The position numbers were made by a program, and so were the translations under genes. Source: Klebsormidium nitens (Eukaryota; Plantae; Klebsormidiophyceae). From it: a stretch of DNA of 32,100 nucleotides. Below, piece by piece: positions 3,136-32,100 of this stretch; positions within the stretch are counted from its first letter, which is position 1; every line of letters begins with the position of its first letter. The notes below the pieces were generated by a model that did not search any database, was not told where the DNA came from, and saw only the letters and a program-made list of their open reading frames with translations. Where the stretch lies: positions 1-32,100 of the forward strand of contig DF237765.1 of the NCBI GenBank assembly GCA_000708835.1. The letters are read 5' to 3'.

Positions 3136-3356
3136 GTGAGCGCATCGTGCAGTACGGTCGTCTCAAGGCCGCAACTTGTTTGGGAGATTCGTAAATAGCA
3201 AGGGGGGCTGGGCTGCGGAACACATTGACAGATCTTTGTTCTTTGTGAAAGAAGGTGTTTCCAGAATTGCAAGTGGGTGCAATTGAAGTCCGATGTACAC
3301 GTATAATCTGGGCAAGTTTGGATTGCAACCGCTTCGGTGCGCACACGTACGCGTAG
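3136..3356 (+). other. Spliceosomal intron in the KDZ transposase gene
   Basis: AAG|GTGAGC ... CGTAG|GTG CTT CTG TGC GAC GGG. Removal gives the expected C..CGPHPKVLLCDG. Confidence 0.85.
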
Positions 3357-4891: not shown

Positions 4892-5044
4892 GTGAGCGGC
4901 TGCCTTCCTTTGCTTTTTGCAACGGGTGCATTGGCTCTTGAGTCGAATGTGTACATTCAAGCCTATGTGTGGCAAACGAACGCGCCATGTAAGTGCTAGC
5001 TCAATCTCGATTGAGTGCTGATGTACACATGTCTTGTTTTACAA
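4892..5044 (+). other. Spliceosomal intron in the KDZ gene with a mutated acceptor
   Basis: Donor AG|GTGAGC after VVD. Joining to 5045 gives VVDRFHYSK, but 5043-5044 read AA (TTTTACAA|ATTTCAC) where AG is expected. Confidence 0.65.
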
Positions 5045-5373
5045 ATTTCACTACTCGAAGGCGGGGGCCGAGGTGCATAAGTGTGGGCCCAGCAACTCCG
5101 TGGACTCCTACGACGCGCTACGCTCGGTCAACACAAGCGCGGTGGAATCGGTCAACAGCTTCCTGAAAGGCTTCCGATCGCTGGGGTGGTACAGTAGCCT
5201 GGAAAGCTTCATGGTTATCCTTCCGCTCCTTCTGGACGCGTACAATGCGAGATTAAAGCGCGTTGACGATGCCAAGCTTTGCGTTGCCATTGCAGCGGGG
5301 GCATGGACGGCTGCAATCACGAGGGCGTTGTTGCACGGCTAGTTGGGCGCGCCAAATAGCCTCGTTTGTCGGT

Positions 5374-5846
5374 TGATACGGACCTGATACAAAAAACAGA
5401 GACTGTATCACTGTATCACCTTTTTCACTTGAATGAAAAAGGTGGACATTCGGTTCTCTGTAGACGCCGTTTATTGCTCAAGCGGTTGAACACTATGCAA
5501 TGTTCAGGACTCGTGACCTGAATGTCCATGTTCGCTGCGCAAATCGCAAAAAAGAGGGTGATACGCTTGATACGCCTGATACACTTTTCGTATAGCAGAG
5601 CATTATATATACAAATAAACAAACATTTTTTTAAAAAAATATATGATATACATTGTATTGTATCTTGTATCAAATGTATCACCCCTAAATGCATCATCTA
5701 TGCGTTGTCTACGCCCCTCCCGCCCCTGCTGGCCAGGACTGCATTTTTGCGGCCTTGAAATTGGCCCTGAAGGCCGTGACATCAGCGCCGTTCGGGTGCT
5801 GATACCCGCTTTTTGGGAAGCCCGAATGTTTGTATCAAATGTATCA
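5374..5846. promoter_or_regulatory. Iteron-type replication-origin-like region (TGATAC/GTATCA hexamers, AT-rich core 5583-5659)
   Basis: TGATAC at 5374, 5385, 5559, 5568, 5577 and 5800. GTATCA at 5405, 5413, 5667, 5676, 5832 and 5841, plus GTATCT at 5660. They form three head-to-head groups immediately 3' of the helicase stop codon. Confidence 0.7.
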
Positions 5847-5855
5847 CTCACCTTC

Positions 5856-8766
5856 TCAGTCATCACCCGCCGATTCCTCTTGCATTTCCTTCTCGGTCTT
5901 GAGACGGATTCCGAAAAAGCCTCCTCTCCTCCCGGATCCGTCTAGCATCCGGATCATCCTATTCTTTTTGCCATCTTGTGGCGTGCTCGTAAAGCCCTTA
6001 ATGTTCATCGCTCTCGCCAAGCTGTCCCCTGCTAAGCTCGTGTCGTGCCCACCCGCACACAGGAACTCGAAGAATCGGTCCACGAAGTCGACCTTCGTGA
6101 CGCTTAACGAGACGCCTGTCACGCACGATTCGTCGATGGAACATTGAAGCTTGTCGTTCTCCGCTGCATACTCCCGTGCCGCAGCACGGCATCCCTCCGG
6201 AATGGGAGAGAGAACCTTCGATTCCGGAGATTGCTCTTTCTTCGCATAGTACTTCATTGCGCCCTCCACGCAAAAGTCCAGTACATCCGCCGCTCCTTCG
6301 GCCGATTCAAAGTACGACTTGAGCGTCAGGTCCATTGGTTTGTGTCTCTTGTTGTTCCGATCCAGTTCGTCCGGTGACTTGAATATAAAATCGAACATGA
6401 GCAGCACGATCCTGCGGACCAACGCGGCATCATCGCTCGGGAAATGCGGCCTGAAATTCGTGAAGAGGCATAGCTTGTACCGAGGAATGTAAACCTGCGG
6501 TTTGCAGAAAAGCTCTCGCGCTTCGATAGGATTGCCAGAGGCCGCTTCTTTCAGAAACGATCCGTTCAGATGATCATCCTTCTCTGATTCGTCATTTGTA
6601 ACGAAGCGTTTCGACTTGATGCACATCAGATGGGACGAAGCTGCTGACGCGTTTGCCTTGAAAGTGGGCTTGATAAAGATCGCCTTGTTACCGGCCGTGC
6701 TGTAGCTTCCGAACGCCCGACGTATTGCAGTTGCGAGCACGCTCTTCCCGTTTGAACCCTCCCCGTTCATGATAATAATTAGCTCCTCGCTCGTCTCGCC
6801 AGTTAGGCAATATCCCAAAAATATCTGAAGCCAATCAATGTACTCCGGTGGGAGGACGTCCATCGAGAAAGTGCGGAAGCGGGCCGTTGAGCTCTTCGAA
6901 GCGCCCTTAATGTATGTGCAGGTAGTATTGTTGCATAGATCTTGCGGGTGATGCGGCGAGAGGTCGCCTGTTCGGAGGTCGATCACTCCGTTCGGAGCAT
7001 TGGCGACATGGTTGTCTTGATCGAATAGGTCCATTAGATCTTCGACGTAGAGCTCGTTGACAATGGCTGGCAAGCACTTTCGCACATCAGCAATGTCTTG
7101 CACGTTAATCTTGCCGAAGCTTGGTAAGCTCTGATCTCTTTGCTTGAGACATGCCTGTTCGGCGAGCTTGGTCAGTTCCGCTTGCTGTTTAGAGATGGTC
7201 CGAGTATTCTCCTCTGAGATTCCTTAAAGATCGGAGTGCTGCGAGCGCAGGTTTGCCAAGTACCTCTCCCTTTTTCCCTTGTACCATAGAAGGAGGCAGC
7301 CCATCTGAGAGGTGAAGGCGCTTTCGACCAGATTTGAGACGTCTTGCGCCCACGAAGCACCGTTCCACACGTAGAAGTACGATGTATCCTTCTTCTTCTC
7401 CGACTTGTCTTTCGTGGCGAGAATCCTCCCTTCGATCGCATAGATGTAGGCAAACAGTCGCCCCCAGATTGAAATATGCTTGAGGCGCGGCGTGCTCGGC
7501 CACGATCTTGAGGAGGAGCTGTTGCACCTCTTCGTTCCCTCGAGTGTATTGCGTGATGGCTTGCATATCGTCGAAGTGGTGGACCGGCTGCGTGGTCGCG
7601 TCTTGCAGCGCAGCTTTCAGGCTTAGCACACCGAGCTTCTTCGGAGGTCTATGGGAGCAATCCTGGCCATGGCAGCGATAGTACACGTTGCGCCCGCGCT
7701 TCAGCAGATTAAAGTTATTGCTCCCAGTGTGACGATGCCCGAGGTAGCACGTCCTCGGCCCTCTCGTCCTGTAGCAGAAGTACGTTCCGTATAGGCCATG
7801 CGGCAACGTGCTCGCGTACGTGTTCGAAGAATCACCGGCCTTTTTTCTCAGCATGTTGGAGAGCTCGGTCCTCAGGAGGGTCGTGTCGTTCGACGGTCTG
7901 TTAAAAGCTGATGGTTGGTCATCATTGCGGTTAGTTGGATCCACCTGATTAGCCAAAGCGCATACTGCCGGGATCTCGGGGCTACCCACTGATTGGATCT
8001 CACTGGTGGAGCCGCTATCACCGCCATTATTAACCAATGTGCATAACCATCTGGGCATTTCGGAGCAAGTTTCATAGCTTGGTGGACCGTTTAGCCACTC
8101 GTAGCTTAGAAGCTTCCCCTGACCGTCCCTGTAGCATGCCGGGTCAGCATATACGCAACCTCCAACGGAGCGACCATCAATACCATACGGGAGGTCGCCG
8201 CCCGATTTCAAGCCTGCAAAGTTCGACTTGCGAATGAGGCCGGGACTGTTGCTTTTAAAGTACAGGTGAAATCCATTTGACCCGGTCTTTGCCCTCAGTG
8301 TCGACGGTTCACCATGAGTGGCAACCAAGCGGTTCCAAAGCTCCGTCCCTGGAAGCTTCTTTTTGGTGCTTGAATTGTCGACATCTATAACCATCAGAGC
8401 GCTTGGGCCCGTAAGAATAGCAAGCCCGTTTGCATCCGGCACCTCTAAGAGGGCAGTGGCAATGGACTTTTGCCAAGAGTCTCGGTCCTTGATGTGCCCC
8501 CACCTGCTGGGAAAGACGGCGTCCTTCTTCCCCTTACCCTCATTACCCATCGAATCCCAAAACATGCGCACTGGAATAGCATATAGACCCTTGTCTGCGA
8601 GGTTCATGATTGCCTCCTTGATGTTCGGCGGCCCTGGGGCCTTGATCGGGTTGGGGGTCGAGGCCCTAGGACCGACGACATTGGATGCGTGCTCAAAGCC
8701 TGATGCAGCCATTCTTTCTACACTCATCACAAGGAAAAAATCGAACCGTTCTGAACGCGGCCACAT
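5856..8766 (-). pseudogene. Rep A: bifunctional primase-polymerase (Prim-Pol) + UL52/PrimPol-type Zn finger + D5_N + SF3 (D5/P4-alpha-like) helicase + C-terminal winged helix; intronless, 1 frameshift + 1 stop
   Basis: Prim-Pol motifs LMVIDVD, KTGSNGFHLYF and GIDGRSVGG. ZnF CYLGHRHTGSNNF..YYRCHGQDC. D5_N YFYVWNGASW and NAPNGVIDLRTG. Walker A GEGSNGKS, Walker B FVTNDE, motif C CLFTN, Arg finger VRRI. There is one extra base in the C5 run at 7461-7465 and an in-frame TAA at 7224-7226. The start (ATG at 8766 or a later ATG) is uncertain. Confidence 0.9.
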
Positions 8767-8790
8767 TTTATGCTGCGGTCGAATATCCCG

Positions 8791-9582
8791 NNNNNNNNNN
8801 NNNNNNNNNNNNNNNNNNNNNNNNNNNNNNNNNNNNNNNNNNNNNNNNNNNNNNNNNNNNNNNNNNNNNNNNNNNNNNNNNNNNNNNNNNNNNNNNNNNN
8901 NNNNNNNNNNNNNNNNNNNNNNNNNNNNNNNNNNNNNNNNNNNNNNNNNNNNNNNNNNNNNNNNNNNNNNNNNNNNNNNNNNNNNNNNNNNNNNNNNNNN
9001 NNNNNNNNNNNNNNNNNNNNNNNNNNNNNNNNNNNNNNNNNNNNNNNNNNNNNNNNNNNNNNNNNNNNNNNNNNNNNNNNNNNNNNNNNNNNNNNNNNNN
9101 NNNNNNNNNNNNNNNNNNNNNNNNNNNNNNNNNNNNNNNNNNNNNNNNNNNNNNNNNNNNNNNNNNNNNNNNNNNNNNNNNNNNNNNNNNNNNNNNNNNN
9201 NNNNNNNNNNNNNNNNNNNNNNNNNNNNNNNNNNNNNNNNNNNNNNNNNNNNNNNNNNNNNNNNNNNNNNNNNNNNNNNNNNNNNNNNNNNNNNNNNNNN
9301 NNNNNNNNNNNNNNNNNNNNNNNNNNNNNNNNNNNNNNNNNNNNNNNNNNNNNNNNNNNNNNNNNNNNNNNNNNNNNNNNNNNNNNNNNNNNNNNNNNNN
9401 NNNNNNNNNNNNNNNNNNNNNNNNNNNNNNNNNNNNNNNNNNNNNNNNNNNNNNNNNNNNNNNNNNNNNNNNNNNNNNNNNNNNNNNNNNNNNNNNNNNN
9501 NNNNNNNNNNNNNNNNNNNNNNNNNNNNNNNNNNNNNNNNNNNNNNNNNNNNNNNNNNNNNNNNNNNNNNNNNNNNNNNNNN
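8791..9582. other. Assembly gap (N run), possibly overestimated
   Basis: 792 Ns. Both flanks carry ATATCCCG (8783-8790 and 9583-9590). Confidence 0.95.
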
Positions 9583-10016: not shown

Positions 10017-11037
10017 TTAAGCACCAGAGAAATTTATCTTTTCGCCATTTGGCAGGTAATGCTTTTCGTAAGTGGTCATCTGGATCGAAGACGAATGCAG
10101 CATTTTTTTTGCCAGCTCGTCCCTCTCGGCAATGCTGGGTGCATCTTTGAATGTATTTGAAATACATATTTTCCGTAAAAGGCAAGATCCGACGTTCGCG
10201 TCCGGAAAGATCTTAGAGCAAAACTTTGTCAGGTAGTTTCGAGACATTGGCGCATCAGGAGAGCGCATTCTGCTGAGGAGATAAGCCCTTGGAAACACCT
10301 CCAGACTTTCCGAAATGACATTGTTGGTACGAGTTGGCAGATCGATGGTTTTTTCGCCGTAGGTTTTTACCGTCTTGTAGTCTTTTAGCACGATTTGGAA
10401 GCGGCCTTTCTCGTATTCGAAAAGGTAATTACCAGTTCCGGCCATCAAGGCTTTTGCAGCAGAGTCGTCGTAGCAAACAATTGGCAGCTCGCTGTAGTCA
10501 TTTCTCACAGCTGGTGAATAGGTATAGAGACACAACACCAAGTGCCGGATTAGGGTAACCTTGTCTAGAACGGTCAATTGTTCTGCATGGCTTTTTAGGT
10601 AGAATGTAACGGTTCACTCGTCGTTGCAGCTCCACCCGCCTTTCGTTGATCTGTTCAAGCGATCTCCAGTTCTTATATTCCGATTCCGAGAGAACTTGCG
10701 GCGGAGGTCTGGCATTTTCCATCACTTCGCGAACCGATTGGTACCGTTTAAAGTAAGTTTGGTAGAGTTCAGTGTTTTGGTCGGATTTCAACTCCTTTTT
10801 GACAATGACGAGAATGGGGGTTATGCATGTTGCCTGCATGCTCGGCTTTTCCTCATATGTGTTTGCCAAATAGCCGATTATCCGGTTTGTATCCTTGAGC
10901 CACTCGAAACTCGACATATCAGCATCTTGACCGTTCAGTCCTTTGTACAGACGTGCAATATGACTGCAGTATTGGTTAACGGTCACCGGTTTCCGGGTGC
11001 CATCGTCAAAGACTTTCTGAAGAAGGTCTTGCGTCAT
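10017..11037 (-). CDS. Tyrosine recombinase resembling the OLV11-like family of virophages/Polinton-like viruses; one +1 frameshift near 10587
   Basis: LCLYTYSPAVRNDY (catalytic R), DYKTVKTYG (K), LLRKICIS (R), MLHSSSIQMTTYEK (H and Y). The N-terminal domain carries the ..NWRSLEQI motif. Removing one base at ~10587 fuses ORFs 10498-11037 and 10017-10577 (..KP-AEQLTVLDK..), ~340 aa. Confidence 0.85.
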
Positions 11038-11319
11038 TGGCGTGGTTACAGTGCGTGTCTCAGCCTGAGGCCCCCACTACATTGTCCGGCCGGTTGTCAA
11101 AAAGCGCACTACGATTTGCCCGGGGCCCGCAAGATACGGGGCTGTTCATCCAGCGGGGCCACGTCAAATGTACGGAATTGAACTGGCCAATGAAACAGGG
11201 GTGGTACATATACCACGTGGGTTGGTATAGGACCGCCGGTCCCGTCAGGCTGTGAGTGCCCGGTCACTAATTCAGCGTAACATCGCCTGCAGACACAGCC
11301 AATTCAGCTGCCCGGTGAC

Positions 11320-11477
11320 NNNNNNNNNNNNNNNNNNNNNNNNNNNNNNNNNNNNNNNNNNNNNNNNNNNNNNNNNNNNNNNNNNNNNNNNNNNNNNNNN
11401 NNNNNNNNNNNNNNNNNNNNNNNNNNNNNNNNNNNNNNNNNNNNNNNNNNNNNNNNNNNNNNNNNNNNNNNNNNNNN
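11320..11477. other. Assembly gap (N run)
   Basis: 158 Ns upstream of the recombinase. Confidence 0.95.
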
Positions 11478-12142
11478 GTCTATGCTATATTGAGTAGGCT
11501 GTAAATAATGCCCGGTACGGCCCGCGCGGTAGCCTTCGGCTAGTACCGCCAGCTAGGATAAACCTGCCGACGGTGAATTCTTGTAAACCTTGAATTTTCC
11601 GAGTACACTCGACGGAGAAAGTACTGCCGCAGTGTACAAGTGCAATTCTGACAGACTTGGACTCGGTCCCTATACGTGGCACTCATCGGACGGTGCCAGC
11701 CCCAGCCAGCGGAAAGTTCGGGACCCCGAAATGTACCTAGTTAAAGTGCGCTTTTTGACAACGGGATGGTCAATGTAGTGCCCTGCATACTTGCTTTATC
11801 TAGGTTATGTAGATAAAAATTATGACCAGCAGACGCGTCTTTCTTTTGTGGATAAGTGATTATAGGCGTTTGTATTTTTTGCAAAAGCTTTATCGTGTAA
11901 AAGCTGTTGTAAATTATTTGACAAAAGAGGGGTTCCGGAGGGCCTTTTCAAAGGGACTTTTGTTACAAAAGTGATTATGAGCCAGATAACGTGAATATGG
12001 TTGTACATTTTTCATATATTGAGCACTCTGACGCCATTCATTTTTCTAGAAGGGGCAACGCTCCGTTATTTGTTGCTGATGCCGACCTCTTTGCCGGGTT
12101 CGCAAGCAGTTCGAGGTCAGGTACTTCGGTGTCCTCATTTTT

Positions 12143-13989: not shown

Positions 13990-14350
13990 CATGGTCGCCT
14001 ACACCGTGTCGAAGGCGATGGGTCGGGGTCTGTCCAAGCTGTCCAAGCTTTACGTGCATGAAGTATTTCCATTGTTCGACTTGATGACGACACCAGTCCA
14101 TCAGTCCGTTGTAATTGCTAATGTGGACTCGAGCAGCGGCCTGTTCGGGTTGTCCAAGCTCTGGCGCGAAGTTGTCTGTCATTCCGTTTGCTGACGGCAT
14201 CAATCTGTTGTAACTGACAGCGTCCACTTGGGCAGGGCTGTCCAGGCTGTCCAAGCTTTTGCGCACAATCCGGGAGATGGCCTCGGCATGTGTCCAGGTG
14301 TCCAAGCGTTCTACGGAACTTATTGTGGCCGCGAAATGCTGACGTCACCA
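13990..14350 (-). repeat. TGTCCA/TGACGTCA module array 3' of Rep B (inverted relative to the 22.2-23.0 kb array)
   Basis: Paired (C/G)TGTCCAAG motifs at ~14030, 14150, 14240 and 14295, and GCTGACGTCA at ~14338. Exact reverse-complement matches: 14175-14195 with 22322-22342 (21 nt) and 14094-14117 with 22410-22433 (24 nt). Confidence 0.85.
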
Positions 14351-14680
14351 TAACTAGAAGTTGCAGACTTTAGTGCCGTTGAGCTTAGACATTTCATACG
14401 CTAGATAAGCCACCATTCAACTGTGACGAATGCAGACCTTGATTTTTAGCACGAATGTTTAATAACAGTGATGTTTCTCACAGACGATGTTATATCCAGC
14501 ACCAAGCTTTTCGAAAACACGAACGACCACTGAATCGATGAAGTTGAATGTACACGAACCTACTTCAATAAATACACAATCTAAAATACAATATTAGTGA
14601 GCGCGCCAGCCTGCATGGACAGTCATTCTGAGTCACTACCATGCCTATTGTACAATGGGAGCCTCGAACCCCTATGATAA

Positions 14681-17600
14681 TTAGAATTCATAATTGCACT
14701 TGATTCCTGGATAGTAATACTGCCACGGCGAGTCGTTATTCCTAAGCCTCTTGAATCTCTTCCGTTCCATTCTTCTTTTCAGCTGCTCTTTGGAGACGGC
14801 CTCGGAGGAAAAGCTATTGTAAAGCCCAACAAAATCATTCTCCAAAGTCGAGTGCCCTTCCCCGAACTCGCAGTGCTGGTCGAGAAATAGCTGCAGCTTG
14901 TCCATCTCGCTCAGGTACTCACGTGTCGCGTTCCGCACTGCCTCAGGAGGAAAACCGAGCCCGTTTGCGCTAGCATACCACTCGACGGAGCCGCGGGCTA
15001 TCCACGAAAGGACCTGCCGAAGCGACTCCTCCTCCTTCATGCGATCCTTCAACCCGTCGTCTCGGAGGCGGTGGGTGGCGTTGGTGGGATCGAACTTGTC
15101 CGCGCCCACATAGCTGTTAGGAAACGGCATTACTCGCAAACGGCGTATGACGTTGTCCTGGACTGCGGACGCAGAGATGGTGGGGGGGTAATTCGTCTGA
15201 ACGAAGGGCGTGTGGGTGATGTTGAACTGTACGTTGCGCCCATGGAGAGGGCGCGCCTTCGTCTCGCCCCCTCCGGTCATTCCAAGGACAAGCCCAAGAT
15301 CGACCTGCTCGCCTTCGGCCGTCTCGTCGGTGATGGCGAGCCGCACGCCCATCAGCTCGTAGATGTAGTCCGTAGGCGCGTTCTTGGAGGCGACTCTCTG
15401 GCAGGGAGCCGTGACGACCGCGTCCTTAGACATGAGGCCGTAATAGTCTCCGGTTGCAGCCTGCAGCGTCTCCTTCAGGACCCCTTTCCCGTTTCCTGCA
15501 AAACGACGGAGAAACGAGCTCAACTCAAGATAACAAAGATGATTCAGCAAGCATTCACGCCTTCAGGCACACGGAAGAAAGCTGGTCGGATCGCTGGTCG
15601 TGGTATAATGAGATGCATAATCTGTTGATTTAGAGATCTATCAATGTTTAAGGCCGTCCATCCGCATAGAGCTCCAAACTGGTATATGGGCTCTTTTGGC
15701 AAACGCGATGTGGCCAAGAAGTCGCACAGAACGCTGAGAAGCGAAAAACCGTTGGACGACTAGCTACGAGCGGCCAGGCCTGATGCTACTTGACATCCAA
15801 AAAGCACATCACACACTTTCTGGACGACAAGAATGGAAACAAAACCGAGGCCTGGCTTGAACTCAGCAGCAATCTCCTTCCAAGACTAAGCCCGACAATC
15901 TAGAGACCTTACCTCCCGCTCCGAGCAAGAGCACAAAAATCTCCTCCTGGGTACGGCCGTTCAGGGCCAGCCAAACAGCTTCCGCATGTAGTCCACCAGC
16001 TCGGAGTCGTGGTTGAAGATGTCGCCCAGAAAAGCATCCATGAGAGGGCTTGGGTAGTCGATCCCCTGCAAAGACAGGTTCTTGGTGTTACGGACGGATA
16101 TACAGGCTCCTTGCCTTTTTGCCTCAAAAGCAATGGAGCAGATCGTAGATGCACGTCCTCAGAGTTAAATGTCAGCAAGATTGTAAAGAGCCAAAATCAC
16201 AACGGAAGAAGAATCCAGCGGCAAAGGATGCACGCCAACGCCTTGCTCGTGTCTTTCACAGGCAGCCAAAAGTGCGCGCTTTCACGAGACCGTAAGAGAA
16301 CGAGAAGGTCGTTCAGGGGCTCCCAGCAATCAATAGCGTGCTAGCCAACGAAGTCCTTTTGGAAGCAGCATGGGGTGCTTACCTTGAAGTCCGTCTCCGT
16401 GATCTTGGAGCACATGTATTGGGGCCTGTGCGCATCCAGCTCGCCCGTCCTGAGAAGGAGCACGCCGTTCTTGACGTTCAGGATATCCGGGTTTGCGTCC
16501 AGCTGCTGGGCGAGGTCGTCAGCGGACAACTCCCCCTTAATGAGCTCAAGCGTACTGGACATCTCACGGGTGTTGTTGTAGGTGCGCAGGTGCTTAAGCT
16601 GCAGGAATAGCTCCTCCTTCTTCTCCTCGTCAGTGGTCGCCTTAATCTTTGCGCTCCACTCGTCCCTCACTCGCGCGTACACGATCCTGAGCTGATTGAT
16701 GAGGACGTGCTTCACCAGGAAATCGCTCTCATTTGACACGAAGCGCCGCCCCTCCCAATGCCACCAGCGTTTCCCATCGAACCACAGCCTGCAGAAGGGC
16801 AAGTAGGACGAGTTAACCGAGGCTGGCGAGCACAATTCGGCGTGAGCTCTTGAGAAGCGCGTCCAGAGCTCTGAATGCATCAAGCAATTCTGGTCTACCA
16901 ATCCCCTTCAACTTCCATAGAAAGCCTGCTTAACCTGCACTTATAACCGCACCAAGGAGTCCAGAATAAAGTTCAAAAAAAACTCTCAAGAGATTGAAGC
17001 ACGATGATGACGTCAGCAATATCAGGCCGACGAAATCTTACACCAAACCTTGGACACTTGGACGGACTGCCAAGCCAAGCCCAGTCCGTTGTCCAAATGT
17101 CCAAGCTTCTGCCAAAAGATTCGAGCAAAAATCTGAGCGTGACGTCAACAATATCAGGCCGACGAAATCTTACACCAAACCTTGGACACTTGGACGGACT
17201 GCCAAGCCAAGCCGAGTCCGTTGTCCAAATGTCCAAGCTTCTGCCAAAAGATTCGAGCAAAAGACTGAGGATGACGTCAGCAATATTAGGGGAAATCTTA
17301 CACTAACCCTTGGACACTTGGACAGACTGCCAAGCACCTGAGACCTTCTCAATTGCAGCAAACCTCTTAAAAACAAAAATGGCTCAAAATCACCTTTTCG
17401 CTGTACAAGCGTTGGTAAGAATGATCTAGATGACGGGCGCTCCTACAAAAGCGTTTTATTGCATGTGCCAGACGAAGTTTGCCCACCTGCCACAACTCGT
17501 GTACATGGCAGCAGCAATCTTGCTGCCGCCGACGTCCCCCTCAAATGCCCAGTAGTCCACGAAGTCCTTGTGGAGGGCGTCGATCGCGCTGGCGTCATCA

Positions 17601-20600
17601 GCACGGAAGGCACGAATCTCGCCACCAATCATGGCCTCTGAGCGCGTGAGCTCTCCGATCTTTCGCAAGGGGCGGACCCCCTCGCACTCCGAGCTGTTGC
17701 AGCAATACAGCAGGGCCCTGCCGCGTACCAGCACGCTGAAGTTGTTGGAGCCGTCGTGGTGATTGCCGTTGGGGCAGCGTCGGGGCCCGTCCACCCGAAA
17801 GACGTACATCGGGCCGTTGACGCCCGTCTTGAGGCGATCGAAGCGAGAGGCGGTGTCGCCAGTATCCGCCACGCAGGCCTTGACGCGCTTCAGGATCGCT
17901 GCTGGGGGAGGCTGCTGAGGGTCTTCGACCGGACGAGGGGGTCCGAAAGCTGCGGTCTGGGCCTCGCTACAGAATATAAAAGAGTAAAGCATCACAACGC
18001 TGAAGGAAAGAAAGCAAACATGTCGATGTTCTCACATCATAGATGGAAACTGGGACAGATGAGTCAGGCTACTCCGGGCCCGGCTGTCCACCCACTGATC
18101 GACATATAAAACTACNNNNNNNNNNNNNNNNNNNNNNNNNNNNNNNNNNNNNNNNNNNNNNNNNNNNNNNNNNNNNNNNNNNNNNNNNNNNNNNNNNNNN
18201 NNNNNNNNNNNNNNNNNNNNNNNNNNNNNNNNNNNNNNNNNNNNNNNNNNNNNNNNNNNNNNNNNNNNNNNNNNGACAAGAAATGCCTTTGCTCTAGAGC
18301 TTGGACAACTTGGACAACTCGGAGAGGCCCCGACCCGATCGACGCGATCAACTACAGTGGCTTTTGGCGTCAGCATTTGCGACAAGAATAACTTTGTTCT
18401 AGAGCTCGGACAGCTCGGACAGACCCTGCTCGGACTTCCAGGGGACCGAATCTGAGGATCAAGGACTTGAGAACGTACCCGCCGCGGCGGCCCCCGCCAC
18501 CGTCCTCGCTTGGTGCTTCGTCGCTCTCGTTGTCTGGGGGGGCCCTGAGATTGGAGCGGTCCGGCAGGATCTCTTGGTCCCACTCGTAGCACCGGCACGT
18601 GCCGTCGAGCCCCACGTAGCTGCTGGGAGCGGTGTACAGCATTCCGCCACGCCCGCGCACGTCGATGCCCACCGGTTCGCCCTTGTACCGGATCCGTTTT
18701 CTATTTGCGCAGTTGCGCAGGCCGGCCTCTGCGGACTGCGACAGGGAGAAGAGGACGTGCATGCCCCCGTTGCCGGTGGTCAGGCGGGGCGTGTCCTCCA
18801 GAAAGAGCCCGTGCTCTTCGAGCATACGTTCGACCGCTTGGAAGCCCCCGTCCTTCACGTCGACGTCGACCGCTAGGATGTCGGACGCCTCCGTGACGAT
18901 GGCGATGGTGTTGCGGGACTCTTGGAGGCAGTTCCCGAGGTTGGCCTCGTTCCAGGGCTTGCGGGAGGGCCAGCGACCTGGCACCTTTCGGACTTCACCG
19001 TTCGGAAAGCGTTTCTCCTGGAGATCGTGGGTGAGGGTCACGACGCCGAGCTCGTGGAAGTGATGGGCGGCAGCCAGGATGGGGTCCGGGCTTGGTCCCT
19101 GCAGAAAGAAGAAAGCAATCTCAGATTGATTGCAGATTGATCTACATAATACTCCGAGCGCGATCCGTTCACAGACGCTTGACAATCCGAGTGCCTACAC
19201 TTTCGGACTATGCCCCGCAGCAAATCAGCATGACGTCAACAAGAACGTAGCCCATTTGGTAAAGCCTGGACGCCTGGACAGCCCATCACTTGCCAGACCA
19301 TGAATCGAAATCGGCACTGTCCAAGTTATTCCGAGCTCCACAAACAAACAGCTAAGAGCTTGTGGGATGACGTCAGCAAGACAGCGCCGCGAATACTTTG
19401 GCAAAAAACTTGGACACGTGGACAAACGCACAAAGCCAAAACTTCCACTAAAAGCAAGCCCATCAGGGGCGAACGGCGACAACTCGGGCTGTCCAAGGTG
19501 TCCAAGCTCTAGAGCAAAGTATGTCCGGTTTCAGCTTGCTGACGTCATCAAGTCCTTGCAGCTGCACTCGAGCAGAGTGTGTCCGAAGGGTCCAAGCTGT
19601 TCCACCTTTATTTATGTTCTTTCAGGGCTGGAGTGATGACCTCAGCAGACAAGCTTGAGAGACGGCTCTTCCAGGCGCCGGAATGATGACGTCAGCAAAA
19701 TTTAGCTGCATAAAACTTGCGCCAAACTTTGGACACTTGGACGGACCACCGAGCCCGGACCAGCAAGCCCAGACTGTCTTGAACCGACTTGCAAAAGGCG
19801 AGTTCTGTCAAGTTCGGCCGTGAGTCTTGAGATAGCCTGTACAATGACGTCAGCGGCTGATTCCGGCCAAGCCCGTTGCGTCATCAGCACCAGAGCGCAT
19901 TAAAGGATTACTTCCACGCCCACTTCGCGCACCTGGATTGGCGGCCAAGTGCAGAAGGGTGCTTCGAGCTCCAAATAATGAGATGAGTCAAACCCGAGCC
20001 TACCTGGCGGAAGGGCGTCGGCTCCTGCACCGCAGCGCGGGCGTTGGCGCGCGAAGGAAGTGCTGACGTGGCCGCAGACATGGAGGCATCTCGGACGGAT
20101 GGCCCGGCAGTAGCGGCCGTTGTCGCTGCGACGGGAGCCATCGGTTCGCCGTGCTGGGACACGGCCTGCACAATTTCCAAGTCGATCACATGAGAATAGA
20201 GAAGCCGAAATCAATCATCTCACCCGAGTTAACCGCACAAGAAAAGCAAATAAGACCACAACCGGGCAAGCTCCGATCAGATGTTAGGAAAGGAGACACG
20301 CCGAAGCTGATCGCGCGCGCATCAGCTTTACGAATTCGTGTACATCGTCAAACAATGTCGTGAATGCTTGGGAATGTACACGAAGGGAGGGCAAATATGA
20401 TCGACTGTACACTTTCATACGAATTGCTCAGGCCTCAACTCCGACAAGAATTTGATGCAACTTCCGAAAGACAGTCGACCATGGAAAGTGGGCACACCTG
20501 GCGCGCAAGAGACTCCCTGCGCTCCTGCCCCGAACGAGGGTCGATGCGGCAGATGCTGAAGTACTGGCGCAGCTCCTCGGATTCGCGCTCGTCGTCCCAG

Positions 20601-23600
20601 TCCCAGAAAGGGTCGTCGTCATTACGAAGGTCCCCCCACTCGCTCGATGTAGCAGACTGCCCCCCTTCCTCGGAGCCCGACTCGTCAGCTTCCGCTTCCG
20701 CTTCCGACAAGATCACCCGGCGACGACGCCGCTGACGGGGCTGCGACTCTCCACTCTGCTCGCTCTCTACGCGCTTGACCCGCTTGCGTGGCCCCCCCAA
20801 CTGAACGCCCGACTCGGTCTTTGACGGCCAGAGCTCTGCGTCCATCGCAGCGTACTCGCAGAAGGGGGGGCGGCCCAGTGCTTGAGGAGACTCGTTTCTA
20901 AAGGCACGGTCCTGTGAGGTCTCCTCGTCAGAGGACTCTTCCTCCCGGTTGAATTCCACGTCCTCAATGTCCTCTCCCTGGGAGTCTGCCTCGATGCTCC
21001 GACCGCCACTCTCCTGATAGGAATAGAAAGAAACGTATTGATCAGATCGAGCAACGGCTCACGTTTAAAATGGTGACAAGTCTTGTCCTATGATCGACCG
21101 TACCTTCAGATCGAGGTTTGTAAGCCCTTCCTCGTGGTAATACAAACGGACCAAAAGCGCCCGACTGAGGACTCAGTGGAAGGTCGTAGGTACAAACAAC
21201 GACGATTCGTGGCTGAATTCTAACGTAGACTGGGGCCGTTGTTGAAAGCCCGTGGCCGAAAACGACATACACGAGCTATCATTACAGAAATTTCGCATAA
21301 GAGCCCCGTAAAATGCAAAACGCTGAAGATTGGCGGGACATCGGGCGCCCTGTGGATCCACAAATGCAAGGAAAAACGGGCTCAAGGCAGCCCTCTATCT
21401 GATGGTCCACGTCGGCATCGGATCATATGGAGCTGTCGCTTCAGCTGCCAACTCAGAACATTAAGAAAACCTCCAGCCCTTGCGATATCTGACTTGAGAC
21501 TTCCAGCCTCCGAAATTGGCATCATCACGATTCTTTCTAAGCCTGTTCACATGGGCGTCCAAGATGTCCAAGATGTCCAAGCTTTTGCTCAAACTTTTTC
21601 GAACATTGATTTCATGACGTCATCACTACTCTCAGACCTATGGCCTGACCTTCGGATGGATGCCCGAGAAGGTCCGAGCTCTAACCCGAAGTACCCTGCT
21701 CTGTGAACTGCATTTTCACATTGTCGAATCACCGAATGTTGTGAACAGCACCATAAGAGATGCAAGAAAGCGCTCACCTCCATCCTCGCGTCCTCCACAT
21801 CCCAATCTCCTCTGCTCTCCACAGGCGTCGGGCGCGACTGCGACAAAGGCGGGAACGAGGCTGAGGCTGAATCACCCCGTCTGATGACGGCCCCGGGTTG
21901 CTCTCAACGCAACCAATCATCAAGAGGGTTGCTGCACGGATTGGAAAGACGACGATTAGGGCGCACTGCAATGCTCGATTCCCTCAGTGGACCCGGAACA
22001 GTAAGATCAAGCTGGACAAAGGGCTTCATTGTAGGGCGGAAAAACATCAGGCACTGCTCAGAGACGTGCCACGACTGACTTCCTAGGGCTTTCAGCGCCT
22101 CACCCAGCAGTGCATGGCTCATGGGCTTCCTGGAGGGCGGCGCCACCTTGAAGTTGGCCTCATCCCAAACTGCAGAAGCAAAAAGTGGCGCATTCAGCTG
22201 AAAGCTGCAAGACATTGCTGACGTCAGCAAATCGAGGACGGAAATACTTTGCGCAAAAGCTAGGACAGCTCGGACTGGCCCTGCCCAAGTCGACGCTGAC
22301 ACTTACAAAGAGATTGATGATGTCAGCAAACGGAATGACAGAGAACTTTTGCGCCAGAGCATGGACAGCTCGGACAGCTCGGACGGGCCCTGCTCGAGTC
22401 TGGCACTGCCAATTACAACGGACTGATGGACTGCTGACGTCAGCAAGCTGGACGAAGAGAATTTCGCCAGAGCTTGGACAATCTGGACAACACGGACAGC
22501 CCCTGGTCGACGCTGCGGATTGATGACGTCAGCAAACGGGTGACAAAAGAAACTTTGCGCCAGAACTTGGACAGCTCGGACACCTGCTGAAGCCCATGCT
22601 GTCAGCTTTAAGAGATTGATGATGTCAGCAATCGAAGGACGGAACTACTTTGCACCGGAGCTTGGACAGCTCGGACAGACCGTGACCCAATCGACACGAT
22701 CAACTACAGTGGCCTGATGACGTCAGCAAATCGGAGGGCGGAAATACTTTGCGCAAGAGCTTGGACAGCTTGGACACACCCTGACCCATCGATGCAATGA
22801 ACTACAAGGTCGTGATGACGACATCAAGTCGAAGGACGGAAATCCTTACGCCAGAGCTTGGACAGTTCGGACAACTCCGACAGGCCCTGCCTAAGCCTTA
22901 TGCTGTCAGTTACAAGGCTGATGATGTCAGCAATTCATGGACGAAAAAACCTTGCGCCACAGCTTGGACAGTTCGGACAGACCCTGACCCAATTCGAGCT
23001 TCAACTGCTGGTAAGAAACGACAGTACCATCGATTATGGTGAACGGGCTCACTCACCTGGCAGGCGGCAAGAGGATTTTGCTGGTTCCGCAGACGAGCTG
23101 GCCTTGTCCATCTTCCGCAGCTCCTCTTCGAGTCTCACCACCTCCGCTTTCAAACGGCGCTGCAATCGGTCCTGTACCCAGACTGCAAAAGGCAGGCGCA
23201 CTGATATGAGCTCCTGTGTGCTGACAAGCGGGCGTAGAAACCTTGACTGGTCAGTCGGGCCCAGCTGCATATGAATTCCTGCGCGCTTCATGCCGCTAGC
23301 AGAGGCCTCCCAAATCTCTCACCTGCACGGTCTTTGTCGATGCAGAAGCAGCCGTTGAAAGCGGAGTGCGCGCTGCAGAGGTATCTCGTTTCCCCCCCCT
23401 CCTTGCTTCCACGAAGCCCAAACTCCGCGGTGGCGCCGCATCGGTGGCAATGGAGACTGTGCGGATCTGGGAAGGATGTGGAGAAATTCAAGTTTCAGGT
23501 GCGAAGCTTGTGCAGTCTGAAAGCGCTGAAGCATTGCAAGCTGGGCTTGACCAGTCTGTCCAAGTGTCCAAGGTCTGCGGTAAGATTTTGAGGGCATCAA

Positions 23601-23893
23601 TCTGCTGACGTCATCCTACAGGCTTCCACATGATTGTTTGGCAAAAGCTGAGACAGGCAACTGGTGGGCACATAATGCTCTTGCTATATCGACAGCCCCG
23701 GATCCTATTCCCTCTATCAGTGAATCACAACGGAGAGTGTCCAAAGAAGTGTCCAAGGAGCGCGAGGTTTGCCCTTGGAACCCACTTCAAGTTCTTTATC
23801 CAACTCAGACTTGGGAGCAGCAACGTCGATTGCGCTTCAAAGAACGACAGACTGAAACTAGACACATAGCGAGCACTCACCTGCGCTATGCAT
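14681..23893 (-). CDS. Rep B: 12-exon gene, small Zn/coiled-coil leader - 2A-like peptide - acidic linker - Prim-Pol - UL52-type ZnF - D5_N - SF3 helicase (~1218 aa; two 1-nt deletions)
   Basis: Exons: 23893-23881, 23466-23323, 23182-23057, 22169-22104, 21931-21778, 21013-20498, 20165-20004, 19098-18479, 17966-17487, 16788-16383, 16065-15913, 15495-14681. All junctions are GT..AG. Phases match once 1 nt is restored at the C4 run 21875-21878 and at ~15970. Motifs: ILAVDVD, TTGNGGMHVLF, GIDVRGRGG; CPNGNHHDGSNNF..LYCCNSSEC; LNVKNGVLLLRTG; Walker A GAG|GNGKG, LAITDE, FVQTN, IRRL. Exons 8-12 are well supported by homology. Exons 1-7 rest on splice signals and phase only. Confidence 0.8.
17008..17340 (+). 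repeat. 132-bp tandem repeat x ~2.5 in Rep B intron 9
   Basis: TGACGTCA at 17008, 17140 and 17272 (period 132). Each full unit contains the dyad TTGGACACTTGGACGGACTG..AGTCCGTTGTCCAAATGTCCAAG. Confidence 0.95.
18116..18274. other. Assembly gap (N run) inside Rep B intron 8
   Basis: 159 Ns adjacent to TGGACA repeats (18298-18422). Confidence 0.95.
19231..19860. repeat. TGACGTCA/TGGACA modules in Rep B intron 7, including a 180-bp dyad 19368-19547
   Basis: TGACGTCAGCAAG (19368-19380) pairs with CTTGCTGACGTCA (19535-19547), enclosing TTGGACACGTGGACA and TGTCCAAGGTGTCCAAG. Further modules at ~19231, ~19687 and ~19846. Confidence 0.85.
21888..21931 (-). other. 2A/StopGo-like peptide TLLMIGCVESNPG|P
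   Basis: Codons ACC CTC TTG ATG ATT GGT TGC GTT GAG AGC AAC CCG GGG CCG directly after a CAG acceptor. Matches (D/G)(V/I)ExNPGP except for C at the D position. Confidence 0.65.
22219..22990 (+). repeat. Degenerate ~100-bp tandem array x8 in Rep B intron 3
   Basis: Units begin TGA(C/T)GTCAGCAA at ~22219, 22319, 22435, 22525, 22619, 22718, 22818 (degenerate) and 22921. Each is followed by TTTGCGCCAGAGCTTGGACAGCTCGGACA-like cores and related variable linkers. Confidence 0.9.
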
Positions 23894-25570
23894 GTTGATC
23901 GCTAAGCGTGCGCTGGGGCCAGACCCATCTCCAGAAAGGAATTGTTCAGCGCCTGCTGCGTGGATTGCGGCGCACTGCTTGTGAGGATCTTGACTCGTTG
24001 AAGTGCAGGATGAGCCACCCAGTGCTAATGTACACCGCGCCTGCAAGAATAAGCATGCACTAAGTCCAGAAGAAGATGTAACCTCTGATTGGCACTGATT
24101 ATGCTGGCATCACATGGTGCCAGGAATGCGATGCCTGCTCGAAACCATCTGCTTGACTTTGTGATGGGAGCTGACAGGGCCTCCGAAGCTGGATACTTAA
24201 CATGCCTCATGATGGTCTTTGTCTCAGAATCGCTGAGACCGGAAATTAATTGAATCCTTTGGATTGATCCTACCTGCTGCAACCTGACACCGCAATGGCT
24301 CTCAAAGCACACATACCACAACCGCTGAGGCACAGCCGCTTCTTCAGTTGCCAGCAATCAACACTTGAGGGACACCACAAATACAAGTCTATAAAGATGT
24401 TTTGTAGACGTAAAACCCCGGCAGCTTCAATAGCCACCGTTGCAGCTCAAAAGGTACCTCGTCAATGATGATTCATTCAGCAACAAGATTCAGCTTGAAA
24501 AAGGAATAGATGCAGATAGGTGCTCACCACAGAAAGTTGCGCTCCCTTGCCTCCAGCTCCCCGAATATCTGCTCAAGCCTGAGGTTCTGCAGATCGGTGT
24601 ATTCCCCCCTTGTGACTGCTGGAAAGAGCCCTCTGGAGCACCTTATATATGGTGCACCGCCGGAAGCCGCCGACAGTTGCCATCCCCTGCCAGCCAGCCT
24701 GGCAGATCTTTCTAAGCAAGCTGAGTCAGAAGATGCTCTGCTGACTCGGAAGATGGACAGCTGGCAGGGCTGCAAATAAGTGCCAGAGCCCGCCATTGCG
24801 TGCCGCAATGCGCCAATATGCCAGCAGGCTGCATAGGTGACAGCTTGCAGATTGCATGCAGAAGACAACCTGGCAATCCCCATTACTGAGGTACACTGCG
24901 AGAGAAGAGCCAAAACAGAAGAGTTGTCGTTGAGACACGCGCTACAGAAGAAACCTACAACCTGCTTCATGGCAGCCATTGCCGAGGAGTCTCGGAAGAA
25001 GCCAACCCCTGCAGTGGCTGGGCCTGGGCCTAGCTAGGTCACGGCTCTTGTTGCCCAGTCTCGTATGTCCTACGGTATATAGAAGGTTACGGGCCCCGAG
25101 GGAGCGTTCAGGGCCCCTATAGAGTGCCGCAGAGTCTAAGGATCGCCCGGGATAGGGTGAGTCCAAGCTCGAACAGCTTGCACCTTAGGGAGAATTTTGA
25201 GACCTGCCGTTTGTATGCAATGGGAGAATCGAGGCGTTTTTGCCCCTATGCTCTCTGTCCATGCGGTTGGCTGACAATTCTAAACAGAATCGGTCTTTGT
25301 AAACAGAAATCGGGTCTTCGGTTACCGATTCTCATTCAACACTTCACGTCCCATGCAACGCCTTCGTCGACTCTCATGAAAGGGGGTGGTCGGGAGCATA
25401 ACCCGGTCAGTTTTAAGCAGCCTTTGAACCCGCGGGCCGGTGTGGTTCCAAGGGGAAACCCCGTACCGAGGGGGCTGCCCACCTTCCTCCCTGCGGGGAA
25501 AGGATGGGGGGAAACAAGTTTTTGCCCCTACGTCACTGCTCGGTTGGAGCAAAATCGCCTGGCGCGGTGG

Positions 25571-26287
25571 GTATGTATTTCCTAATCTAACGAGGAGCCA
25601 AAAACTTTGTATACTCGAACTTCGCACTTTCCTCTTTATTTTTTGTAAGAGGAAACCCATTTGCGTTTGTAGTACAACTTTTCTGCATGAGAGAAGGCGG
25701 ATTAGCAATTACATTAATACCTTAAATGATTGCAATTGTGTATGTACGTATTTCCTATTCTGAGGACGAGCCAAAAACTTTGTATATTGAAACTTTGCAC
25801 TTTCCTCTCCTTTTTTTGTAAGAGGAAACCAATCTGCGTTTGTAGTACGACTTTGCCGAGAGAAGGCAGATTAGCAAAAACATACATACCTTATAAGCTT
25901 AGGGACTCGAGGCATGGGCCAACCTACCTAAGATAGTATAATTGACTGCAAGGACTTATGTATGTATGTATTTCATAATCTGAGATCGAAAGGTTTTGTG
26001 TACTAGAACTGTTCACTTTCCTAACTTTATTGTGAGGAGGAAAACCAGTTTACGTTTTAAGTACGACATTTTGGAGCAAGGAGAGAATAGCAAATACAAA
26101 CATATTGGTAAGGATATTATAATTGATAGAGGAGAGTAATGTATGTACGTATTTCCTGTTTTGCATGGAATCCAGAAAGTCTATATTGCAAGACTTTTCA
26201 ATTTCTACTTCTGTTTTTGTACAAGGAAAGAAGGATCGCGTTTGTAGTACGACCTTTCCGAGCCGGGCCAAATTAGAGAATACATAC
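25571..26287 (+). repeat. AT-rich ~170-190-bp repeat units x4 with inverted ends (GTATGTATTT..AATACATAC)
   Basis: Units start at ~25571, 25740, 25957 and 26141. Shared AAAACTTTGTATAC, TTTCCTC..TTTTTTGTAAGAGGAAA hairpin and GCGTTTGTAGTAC. Confidence 0.9.
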
Positions 26288-26578
26288 CACTGAAGTGGCT
26301 GCAATCTACTCAAAAGCAGTCTATCGCCAACATACTGACAACGCGGCATACGTGCGATGATGCACCATCACGAACGTCTGATCAGCTACAATCTTTAAAC
26401 GACAAGGGTGTTGTTGGCAATTGGCCACCAATATGACGATTCAAACTTACTTTGCTGCCGCCCCTTGAACATTGTCAAAACCGTTCAGCGTGCCCTTAAA
26501 GGGCGGCATGTTATACGAGTTCGCGCGTCAGCTCTGAAAAGGCTAGGTAGTTCGCTGCTATTCCGATTTGCTTTCGTG

Positions 26579-30262: not shown

Positions 30263-30793
30263 AGTGGCTGTTCTCGTTTTGTTGGTAGAGCAGACTGCCC
30301 CGACTCCACGGCACCTCTGCAGAGGGAGCCAGCGCTGTCCCTGCGCACCATCCAGCCGCCCTGAAAGTACTCCTTTATGTCTCCCACTATCTAACCCTTA
30401 ACCCTCGCGACGTTGAATGGCGATCAGGACCAAGTGGCCAAGCTTGCAATGGACAGGAGCCAGGCGGTCAGCTGGATGGCTATGGTCAGTCTTGTATGTT
30501 CCCGGCCTGTGCCAATTGGTTCAGGCCCCGGGCTCTTCGTTCCTTCCCCCGGGAGCGCTGGGTAGGGCCGCTGCAGCCTGGCTCGCGACCGGACAGTACA
30601 GACCGGGCCGGGGCAGCCCGGCCGGGCAAGAAAGTCCTGGGTCCTGGATATTGTACAGTAGGTCCCAACATACTGCCCAAATAGCTTGAGAGCGTCGAGA
30701 TCGATGCGCTCGAACTTTCGCAAGGTTCCGCAGCCGGCTGACGGACCCTCGATATAAAAGTTCATCGCGTCAATATCCTGAACTTAGAGACTA

Positions 30794-31189
30794 CAGCAGT
30801 TTCGGAGCAAGCTGCCCGGTTGCGATCGATAGATAGGGTCTATTTAGTCTAAATTTAGGCTAAACTTAGTCAAAGTTTACTTACGTGGCATGACTTCGTG
30901 ACGTCTGCACAGTAAAGCTGAAGTTGCGGCACGGTGAACACTTTTTGGTTAGGGTTTTTAGTTTGGTTGCTCAGGGTCTGCCAATCTTAGGGCACATTGC
31001 TGTTAGGGCACACTAGAGTTACACGGTACATATGCCCGGTGATTGGACGATGTGCATTTAAGAACTTAGAATTTGACGTGGAGGAAACTTTAATGACGTC
31101 AAAAGGATAGCCTAAACTTTGACTAGATTTAGTGTCTAAATAGACCCTATCTATCGGTCGCAACCGGGCAGCTTGCTCCGAAAATGCTG
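30794..31189. mobile_element. MITE (396 bp), 54-bp TIRs, TA target-site duplication, Tc1/mariner-like signature
   Basis: Left TIR CAGCAGTTTCGGAGCAAGCTGCCCGGTTGCGATCGATAGATAGGGTCTATTTAG matches the right end reverse complement with 2 mismatches. TA at 30792-30793 and 31190-31191. No ORF. An approximate empty site exists at ~189-212. Confidence 0.85.
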
Positions 31190-31191
31190 TA

Positions 31192-31371
31192 GCAACCGGG
31201 CAGAAGGAGAAGGCTCGGAGTAAGGGGTCGGCCGATAGACTTAGAGGCTTGAGATCGAGCCGAAAGGCAGTTCCAAGGGGCCCGGGAAACTCGGACCGAG
31301 GAGGAGGGTGGAGCTACCGGGGACAGCGAGGTGTCGGTGACTTAGAGGAATGCGCTGCCTCAGGATAGTGA
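31192..31371 (+). repeat. Dispersed repeat, copy 2 (homologous to 201-395)
   Basis: See copy 1. It is interrupted on the left by the MITE and ends just before the AT-rich units on the right. Confidence 0.9.
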
Positions 31372-31394: not shown

Positions 31395-31757
31395 CAAGGA
31401 CTTATGTATGTATGTATTTCGTAATTTGAGATCGATCCAAAAACTTTATATACTAAAGTTTTGCACTTTCCTCTTACTTTTTTGTACGAGGAAAATGCAT
31501 TTGCGTTCGTAGCACGGCTTTTTGGAGAGAAGGCAGACTAGCAAATACATACATACCTAAATGATTGGAGTTAGGTATGTATGTATTTCATAACTTGAGG
31601 ACGAGCCAAAAACCTTGTATACTAAACTTTTGCATTTTCCTCTTACTTTTTTGTAAGAGGAAAATGCATTTGCGTTTGTAGTACGACTTTTCTGAGAGAA
31701 GGCAAATTAGAAAATACATACATACATTATAAGCTTAGGGACTTGAGGCATGGGCCA
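31395..31757 (+). repeat. Two more AT-rich ~170-bp units plus a shared 30-bp tail (direct copy of the 25571-25921 type)
   Basis: Units start at ~31403 and 31575. Tail TATAAGCTTAGGGACT(C/T)GAGGCATGGGCCA at 25892-25921 and 31728-31757. Leader GCAAGGACTTATGTATGTATGTATTTC occurs at both loci. Confidence 0.9.
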
Positions 31758-31873
31758 CCCTTTCACCCTTTACCGCCCTCAGTCTGGCACTGCCCGGCTA
31801 TGGGAAAGGCCCTAACACCAGGCACTCGAGGCCTTTTCGACCGCGGTCGGTCTATCTGCAACCCCTCCGGTCC

Positions 31874-32002
31874 GGGGGGGCTGACGTGGTGGCCTCTGAG
31901 TGGCCCAATTTTAATGCCGAACTTCAAATGGCTTGCTGCAGCAAGGCAAATGAAGTTCGGCATTAAAATTGGGCCACTCACAGGGCGCCATGTCAGCCCC
32001 CC
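31874..32002. repeat. ~130-bp near-perfect palindrome
   Basis: Arms 31874-31926 and 31951-32002 include an exact TGAGTGGCCCAATTTTAATGCCGAACTTCA dyad. The centre CTTGCTGCAGCAAG is itself a perfect palindrome. Confidence 0.95.
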
Positions 32003-32100
32003 TCGGCGGTCCGGCCAGACCGGGGAATTTTAGGGTTTGGTGGCGTCGGTCTGGCCCCATGGAACATACTCGAACCGCCGGGCAGTGTCCAGGTGTCCGA

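Follow-up and report, generated by a model that had tools for sequence, protein, structure and literature searches.

In green algae, the genes of giant endogenous viral elements, once integrated, are transcribed and acquire spliceosomal introns. The origins of SaPI elements lie downstream of the primase-helicase gene, and in SaPI5 the iterons are heptamers with a 2-nt spacer that are bound by a winged helix (bioRxiv 2026.10.17.759575); the origin of plasmid pRN1 also lies downstream of its gene (PMC4234260). Polinton-like viruses carry primase-helicase and tyrosine recombinase modules, with swapping of domains below the gene level reported (PMC11296320). Giant-virus inserts are present in Klebsormidium nitens (PMC5294986); such inserts are mostly intronless and silent (PMC11244446), and the insertion of introners into viral elements is known (PMC12166617). 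Here we analyze a 32,100-nt stretch of K. nitens DNA (assembly GCA_000708835.1, contig DF237765.1, positions 1 to 32,100 of the forward strand), hereafter the window, and in it a replicase gene, Rep B, annotated as KFL_008160040. The finding is a gene family with a StopGo/2A leader and intronic iteron-like repeats, whose copy in the window is real, spliced, expressed, and broken. An earlier note, made from the sequence alone, had reconstructed the gene and overlooked both the StopGo motif and the repeats.

The 12 exons on the minus strand total 3655 nt and, with all 11 introns GT..AG and two frame deficits (exons 5 and 11), give 1218 aa. GC content is 0.54-0.72 in exons (0.57-0.72 without the 13-nt exon 1) vs 0.47-0.57 in introns, and third-position GC is 0.68-0.86 in the proposed frames. 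Evidence for splicing comes from a list of 24 runs, among which 16 RNA-like runs from six studies carry 0.38-0.59 of the sequence words vs an exon share of 0.39; four further RNA-like runs with next to none of these words were left out. No run is recorded as RNA, and the RNA status of the RNA-like runs was deduced from splice joints. Assembled contigs of six of the 16 RNA-like runs and of two DNA runs were compared, the evidence being at contig level and at 95% likeness for the main set. Ten of 11 junctions are exact joints (CT..AC) in all three RNA-like runs of that set, which come from three studies, and none of the 11 is a joint in the DNA run. Junction 5 is seen only as a 19-nt loose end matching exon 5, which could stem from a near-identical paralog. 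A second set of three RNA-like runs shows at least six junctions, bringing spliced RNA to 6/6 RNA-like runs compared, from six studies, and the 159-N gap in intron 8 is spliced out in RNA contigs. The gene is thus expressed and spliced in K. nitens, and the earlier claim that fragments spread over 9.2 kb splice into one frame of ~1218 aa through 11 GT..AG introns holds at all junctions save the fifth. Because a single RNA contig runs from exon 6/7 through exon 12, the N-terminal exons are not a separate gene; the converse, that exons 1-7 belong to separate genes or that the junctions go unused, is contradicted by the same joints. All 12 exons are found in the sequence, as proposed, and the model has to be extended by a further 5' intron, with a joint in 3/3 RNA-like runs. 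The 5' region (24041-25290) has an open frame of 169 codons and, within 910 nt, nine upstream ATGs; the RNA contig lying over 24642-25266 shows no joint to the replicase gene. A paralog transcript of the leader exons (23149-23323, run X9) reaches a contig depth of 5960, far above the window copy, contig depth being a poor measure of expression.

The window copy cannot make the replicase. Relative to it, paralogous contigs are 13 nt longer near 21872 in exon 5 and 1 nt longer near 15968 in exon 11; exon 8 lacks 4 and 6 residues, in two in-frame deletions, that five other models have. Of the two 1-nt deficits noted earlier, the one in exon 11 is therefore correct as described, while that in exon 5 amounts to 13 nt against the paralog. 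From the ATG, the reading frame stops after 249 codons (249 aa), and the mRNA as read also gives a 764-aa open reading frame (ORF) that stops before Walker A, followed by a 250-aa ORF. The annotated KFL_008160040 protein, 1177 aa without stops, bridges both breaks by short introns and might suggest that the gene is intact, the frameshifts being assembly errors or bypassed by extra mini-introns. However, DNA contigs match both frameshift sites without gaps, exon 11 is covered as 153 contiguous nt, gapless and unchanged, in RNA contigs of four RNA-like runs, and contigs of the RNA-like runs have no splice joint inside exon 5 or exon 11, nor any joint for the short bridging introns of the annotation, which also splices out, and so hides, the StopGo motif. 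An intact gene is already contradicted at the contig level, and we regard it as very improbable. Since both frameshifts are real, and the frame is broken in RNA and DNA alike, the window copy, as present in the sequenced material, is a pseudogene that is transcribed and spliced. A tendency of lesions to avoid the leader is not significant (4 lesions; the leader makes up 11% of the length).

As judged from its sequence, the encoded protein is a D5/P4-type superfamily 3 (SF3) primase-helicase (PriRep), in which a Prim-Pol, a Cys/His domain, D5_N, and an SF3 helicase follow one another. Profile searches place Prim-Pol PF09250 in exon 8 (E 8.9e-14, above the cut-off) and D5_N PF08706 in exon 10 (E 3.9e-16), and TIGR01613 scores 111.7 bits vs a cut-off of 108.7. 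The N-terminal primase-polymerase domain has the DxD, H, and D motifs of archaeo-eukaryotic primases (AEP), and the helicase has the Walker A, Walker B, sensor 1, and Arg finger motifs of SF3 ATPases. The earlier view of a long-resident, spliced gene of virus or plasmid type is supported. By profile, the helicase matches African swine fever virus (ASFV) C962R and poxvirus D5 (E 2.5e-43); the predicted structure of exon 12 (predicted local distance difference test, 94.6) aligns over its full length to ASFV C962R (template modeling score 0.81), matches SaPI5 PriRep (7ola; E 1.3e-7), and has a helix/strand winged-helix pattern at 199-266, so that a C-terminal winged helix is predicted. Exon 9 has conserved Cys/His residues and probably encodes a UL52/PrimPol-type primase zinc finger; matches in a fold search are weak and enriched in giant-virus primases (E 0.002-0.06), with the best (Z 5.1) to unrelated folds and a herpes primase at Z 4.7. 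The leader exons have no Pfam match and atlas scores all below 0.8; the idea that the leader is an EsV-1-7 repeat found no support. There is no Rfam match. In profile searches, the 12 exons contain neither a tyrosine recombinase nor an rve integrase domain, in line with the earlier statement that no recombinase is visible inside the gene, and match no family of HUH Rep endonucleases, the enzyme that defines Helitrons and Replitrons (PMC10288648); the domains found are AEP and SF3.

Ahead of the replicase, exons 2-5 encode a leader made of a Cys/His finger and a predicted coiled coil, at the end of which exon 5 encodes LLMIGCVESNPGP, an exact StopGo/2A core. CVESNPGP, at 21911, is the sole match to the core in the six frames of the window. 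It fits, in frame, the expanded core (D/G/C/N)(V/I)ExNPGP, whose natural C variants are >95% active (PMC12846837; PMC8623073), with a chance expectation of ~7e-6 per protein. Upstream lies a Leu-rich stretch ending in G that is conserved in homologs, as in class A peptides. All seven matches in a leader search are K. nitens proteins; among six other leader-bearing paralogs, the exact core is found in four, one has D for E, and one has GIEPNPGW. A peptide of one K. nitens protein, KFL_013500020, is classed as skipping in human cells with a reporter (PMC13405545 supplement); its leader, judged by eye, is the same finger leader as that of the window gene. Ribosome skipping is accordingly predicted for the window leader's 2A signal. 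CVESNPGP itself is absent from the two supplements searched (PMC13405545, PMC12338488), and a recent survey reports no natural StopGo in plant viruses (PMC12846837). A second K. nitens protein, GAQ92643.1, has a skipping 2A peptide and was matched to an Ndc10 domain in supplement 4 of PMC13405545. We take this domain to be Crypton-like, a hint that more than one mobile family of the alga, and perhaps several, may be marked by 2A leaders.

The repeats consist of a TGACGTCA box, which we take to be a basic leucine zipper (bZIP) site, and a TTGGACA pair. All 27 matches to this unit lie at 14092-23613: 22 in introns, five in the 3' flank, and none in exons. Box and heptamer are 41-43 bp apart in 19/27 units, although the spacer sequence has diverged, and nine-bp heptamer pairs number 15 vs 0.15 in shuffles. 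Pairs occur downstream of Rep B, at 14031 and 14239, as well as in introns, with both orientations inside introns 7 and 9. On the letters alone, this resembles the nine-bp iteron geometry of SaPIs. For a control, 52 of 80 viral D5 loci were taken after obvious near-copies had been dropped by eye; a heptamer pair is present at the D5 stop in 22 of the 51 scorable loci, among which related ones may remain, vs 179 of 1191 background windows, and inverted pairs are present at five viral loci vs three of 1191 background windows. The repeat pattern itself gave four single chance matches in viral contigs, with no Rep nearby. At the very end of the contig (32085-32100), there is a heptamer pair of the B type, perhaps the start of another array.

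Rep B belongs to a family. Eleven annotated K. nitens models, two of which may be near-duplicates, have this Rep type and form two main subfamilies that are ~46% identical; most are visibly broken or truncated. At sampled positions of the Rep exons, 5-14 DNA contigs match at 80% likeness. At this likeness, DNA contigs contain no intronless joint among the introns listed (6-11), and in one paralogous DNA contig 469 nt correspond to 107 nt of its RNA; the copies therefore arose as DNA. Exon-sized gene calls in other datasets (P0035, P0078, P0114) start or stop at the same intron ends and, because one of them belongs to the other subfamily, the introns predate the split. Modules have been exchanged within and beyond the family: P0005 is chimeric, with a leader and linker 73-90% identical to those of the window copy and a Rep core only 46-56% identical, and in P0017 and P0019 the leader precedes a primase of a second viral clade, the C962R type (for P0019, by atlas features and structure). 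Among unspliced full-length relatives, the nearest are leaderless environmental proteins of 800-822 aa, 28-44% identical depending on the module. Pattern scans, which are insensitive, confirmed no relatives in viral contigs (queries Rep A, P0003, A4, P0022) or in metagenome contigs (queries P0004, A5). No earlier description of the family was found in the literature covered; subscription journals, the PMC12846837 datasets, and bioRxiv supplements fall outside that coverage and may list the peptide.

The window contains a second replicase gene, the intronless Rep A, which the earlier note called a clear paralog of Rep B. The term is too strong: the two share 25-28% identity and no DNA match. 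A quick tree of 50 helicase regions, a selection from ~190 proteins, places B (98) and A (100) in separate clades, each with closer relatives in other datasets; a joint clade of A and B is neither shown nor rejected, and independent origins are not demonstrable (approximately unbiased test, p 0.327). Given separate clades and a joint clade that is not rejected, Rep A is best classed as a distant homolog. Rep A has close relatives, likewise intronless, in K. nitens and other datasets. The gene is interrupted by a frameshift near 7450 and by a stop at 7224-7226, and RNA contigs of three RNA-like runs do not cover it (5300-9301), contigs being unable to show absence. Its heptamer is unlike that of Rep B, and 12/12 matches lie within 500 bp of the Rep A stop. 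Opposed iteron sets around an AT-rich core are present at Rep A and absent from the 3' flank of Rep B. An ORF at 10017-11076, in the element that holds Rep A (element A), is a putative tyrosine recombinase, named from motifs only. As this ORF is broken across two frames and neither profiles nor structures matched it, the suggestion that Rep B uses the recombinase of element A in trans is unsupported.

Since the family is multi-copy, mostly broken, and chimeric, a selfish element fits better than one domesticated gene. We give an even chance to the window copy being a decayed member of a family of capsid-less, intron-rich, self-replicating selfish elements. For intact members we infer skipping, binding, replication, and insertion: the ribosome would skip at NPG/P and so separate the replicase from its finger and coiled-coil leader of 130 aa; a replicase hexamer would bind pairs of TGTCCAA through its winged helix, beside the host bZIP-type box, and then melt the DNA of the element itself, prime it, and copy it; and the copies would re-enter the genome as DNA, with introns kept. 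As no integrase is encoded, re-entry would rely on host repair or recombination. In the window copy, the product would be limited to the leader and a short out-of-frame tail. Several observations weigh against this proposal. No element ends, terminal inverted repeats (TIR), or target duplication were found in the window flanks of Rep B, nor an integrase within the gene. The heptamer pairs of the 3' flank have one orientation only, without the inverted set of Rep A, and the repeat unit also occurs at other loci of unknown nature (loose ends; the window end at 32085-32100), so it may be an unrelated dispersed repeat; for both reasons, the origin reading is stronger for Rep A than for Rep B. Of five scored natural peptides with the pattern of the window peptide (PMC13405545), three skip and two do not; only one of the five is tied by name to K. 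nitens, and the closest non-skipper differs from a skipper by one residue, an Ala that the window peptide shares. A C at the first core position usually accompanies other upstream motifs (PMC12846837). Finally, steady transcription and 11 kept introns would also suit a host gene family.

The earlier note had left the choice between a replicon or transposon and a domesticated gene; copy number, decay, and chimerism favor the former, and, because no ends were found, two other explanations stay in play. A captured viral primase-helicase could serve the alga in repair, in an organelle, or against viruses, in which case the repeats would be host bZIP enhancers and the broken copies ordinary birth and death. 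The 11 host-type introns common to subfamilies only 46% identical, spliced RNA in every RNA-like run compared, the kept catalytic motifs, and the perfect TGACGTCA box in the repeat agree with such a host family. Yet most annotated copies are broken, many members stand first or second in gene order on short scaffolds, the leader has been swapped between unrelated viral primases, and cellular StopGo is mostly tied to mobile elements; we hold domestication to be unlikely. Alternatively, the copies could be passive relics, genes of endogenous giant or Polinton-like viruses that gained introns and were duplicated segmentally or by other transposons, with the intron repeat an unrelated small transposon. 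K. nitens does hold giant-virus inserts, the window is full of other mobile DNA (a KDZ-like gene, the Rep A element, high-copy repeats), and neither ends nor an integrase were found. A passive origin does not readily account for the fixed 42-bp spacing despite diverged spacers, or for Rep A and Rep B each adjoining its own heptamer type, and integrated viruses are described as intronless (PMC10120064) and mostly silent (PMC11244446); we consider it quite unlikely. That the selfish-element reading would amount to a new class of eukaryotic selfish DNA, i.e., a capsid-less, integrase-less nuclear replicon with origins in spliceosomal introns, primase swapping behind one leader, and natural StopGo in the plant lineage, is a tentative and on balance doubtful proposal.

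Coordinates of the Rep B gene, its repeats, and the Rep A region in the window
Feature	Position	Strand	Remarks
Additional 5' intron (487 nt)	24041..24527	-	Joint in 3/3 RNA-like runs; upstream exon reaches at least 24600
Exon 1 including 5' part	23881..24040	-	ATG at 23893; 5' part untranslated as far as shown
Exon 1, coding part counted in the 12-exon sum	23893-23881	-	13 nt
Exon 2	23466-23323	-	Cys/His finger-like leader (CxxC...C..H), conserved in paralogs; no Pfam match
Exon 3	23182-23057	-	Predicted coiled coil of the leader; Pfam matches weak, below cut-off
Exon 4	22169-22104	-	Leader; Leu-rich stretch ahead of the StopGo core begins here
Exon 5	21931-21778	-	StopGo/2A-like core CVESNPGP at 21911-21888; frameshift near 21872
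Exon 6	21013-20498	-	Acidic low-complexity linker and basic runs
Exon 7	20165-20004	-	Linker, Ala/Pro-rich
Exon 8	19098-18479	-	Prim-Pol (AEP) domain that retains the catalytic DxD, H, and D; deleted in frame at two sites vs paralogs
Exon 9	17966-17487	-	Cys/His domain; likely primase zinc finger, UL52/PrimPol type
Exon 10	16788-16383	-	D5_N domain
Exon 11	16065-15913	-	Runs toward Walker A; 1-nt frameshift near 15968, in DNA and RNA contigs
Exon 12	15495-14681	-	SF3 helicase and predicted C-terminal winged helix; stop codon
Intron 1 repeat unit and heptamers	23552..23760		
Intron 3 tandem array, ~100-bp units	22207..22998		
Intron 5 repeat unit	21552..21625		
Intron 7 repeat units	19231..19760		Both orientations
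Intron 8 repeat units	18275..18430		Adjoin the 159-N gap
Intron 9 repeat units	17004..17335		
3' flank repeats	14016..14350		TGACGTCA box ~42 bp from TTGGACA pair; pairs all in one orientation
Rep A	5856..8724	-	Intronless distant homolog; one frameshift and one internal stop
Rep A origin-like region	5374..5846		Immediately follows the Rep A stop; TGTATCA/TGATAC heptamers in 9-bp pairs that face each other across an 88% AT core

Elsewhere in the window, a KDZ-like transposase gene lies at 1296-5342 (PF18758, E 0.02, below the cut-off), and a high-copy element with 36-bp inverted ends at 11075-11780 (DNA contig depth 1154 vs ~15 for single-copy DNA). Between A and B, the segment 12143-13857 has unexplained ORFs, one with a weak DnaJ match (E 0.078). 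Segment 201-276 resembles 31192-31267, and a 169-173-bp repeat family, a 400-bp element with 57-bp inverted ends, and a 128-bp hairpin are found at 25571-26291, 30791-31192, and 31398-32002. The flanking ORFs scanned have no capsid or packaging match, in libraries that cover such capsids poorly.

Integrated DNA viruses are usually intron-free and silent, whereas the Rep B family is spliced, transcribed, and multi-copy, with introns older than a split at 46% identity. If the intronic repeats are Rep binding sites, introns would let origins sit inside the coding region, and the family would be a DNA element outside the transposase, HUH, and polymerase-B classes. With its StopGo motif, Rep B would offer an example of such a signal preceding a DNA replicase in a nuclear gene of a streptophyte.

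In overall design, Rep B resembles ORF904 of the Sulfolobus plasmid pRN1 and PriRep5 of SaPI5, which likewise join primase, SF3 helicase, and winged helix in one chain; the SaPI5 iterons, moreover, lie downstream of the gene and, as at Rep B, are heptamers spaced by 2 nt. By contrast, these systems are prokaryotic and intronless, have no leader or StopGo, and use one origin, whereas the Rep B repeats, whose binding is putative, are spread through introns. The best solved relatives of the helicase are ASFV C962R and poxvirus D5, from which Rep B differs in its Prim-Pol PF09250 primase, an identity of ~17%, and its spliced nuclear gene. Polinton-like virus modules also use a D5-like primase-helicase as the replicase, and element A resembles them more. 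No capsid gene, TIR, or recombinase was found with Rep B, and inserts of these viruses are described as intron-free (PMC10120064). In having an N-terminal, Leu-rich StopGo peptide before an enzyme, the leader is similar to cellular 2A-like peptides (e.g., those of non-LTR (long terminal repeat) retrotransposons, KFL_013500020, and GAQ92643.1), but the enzyme behind the window motif is a DNA primase-helicase, and the core of the motif begins with C. The giant viral elements of algae, in turn, are large multi-gene inserts, whereas the Rep B family consists of dispersed single genes that have introns in common, a leader that can be swapped, and repeats.

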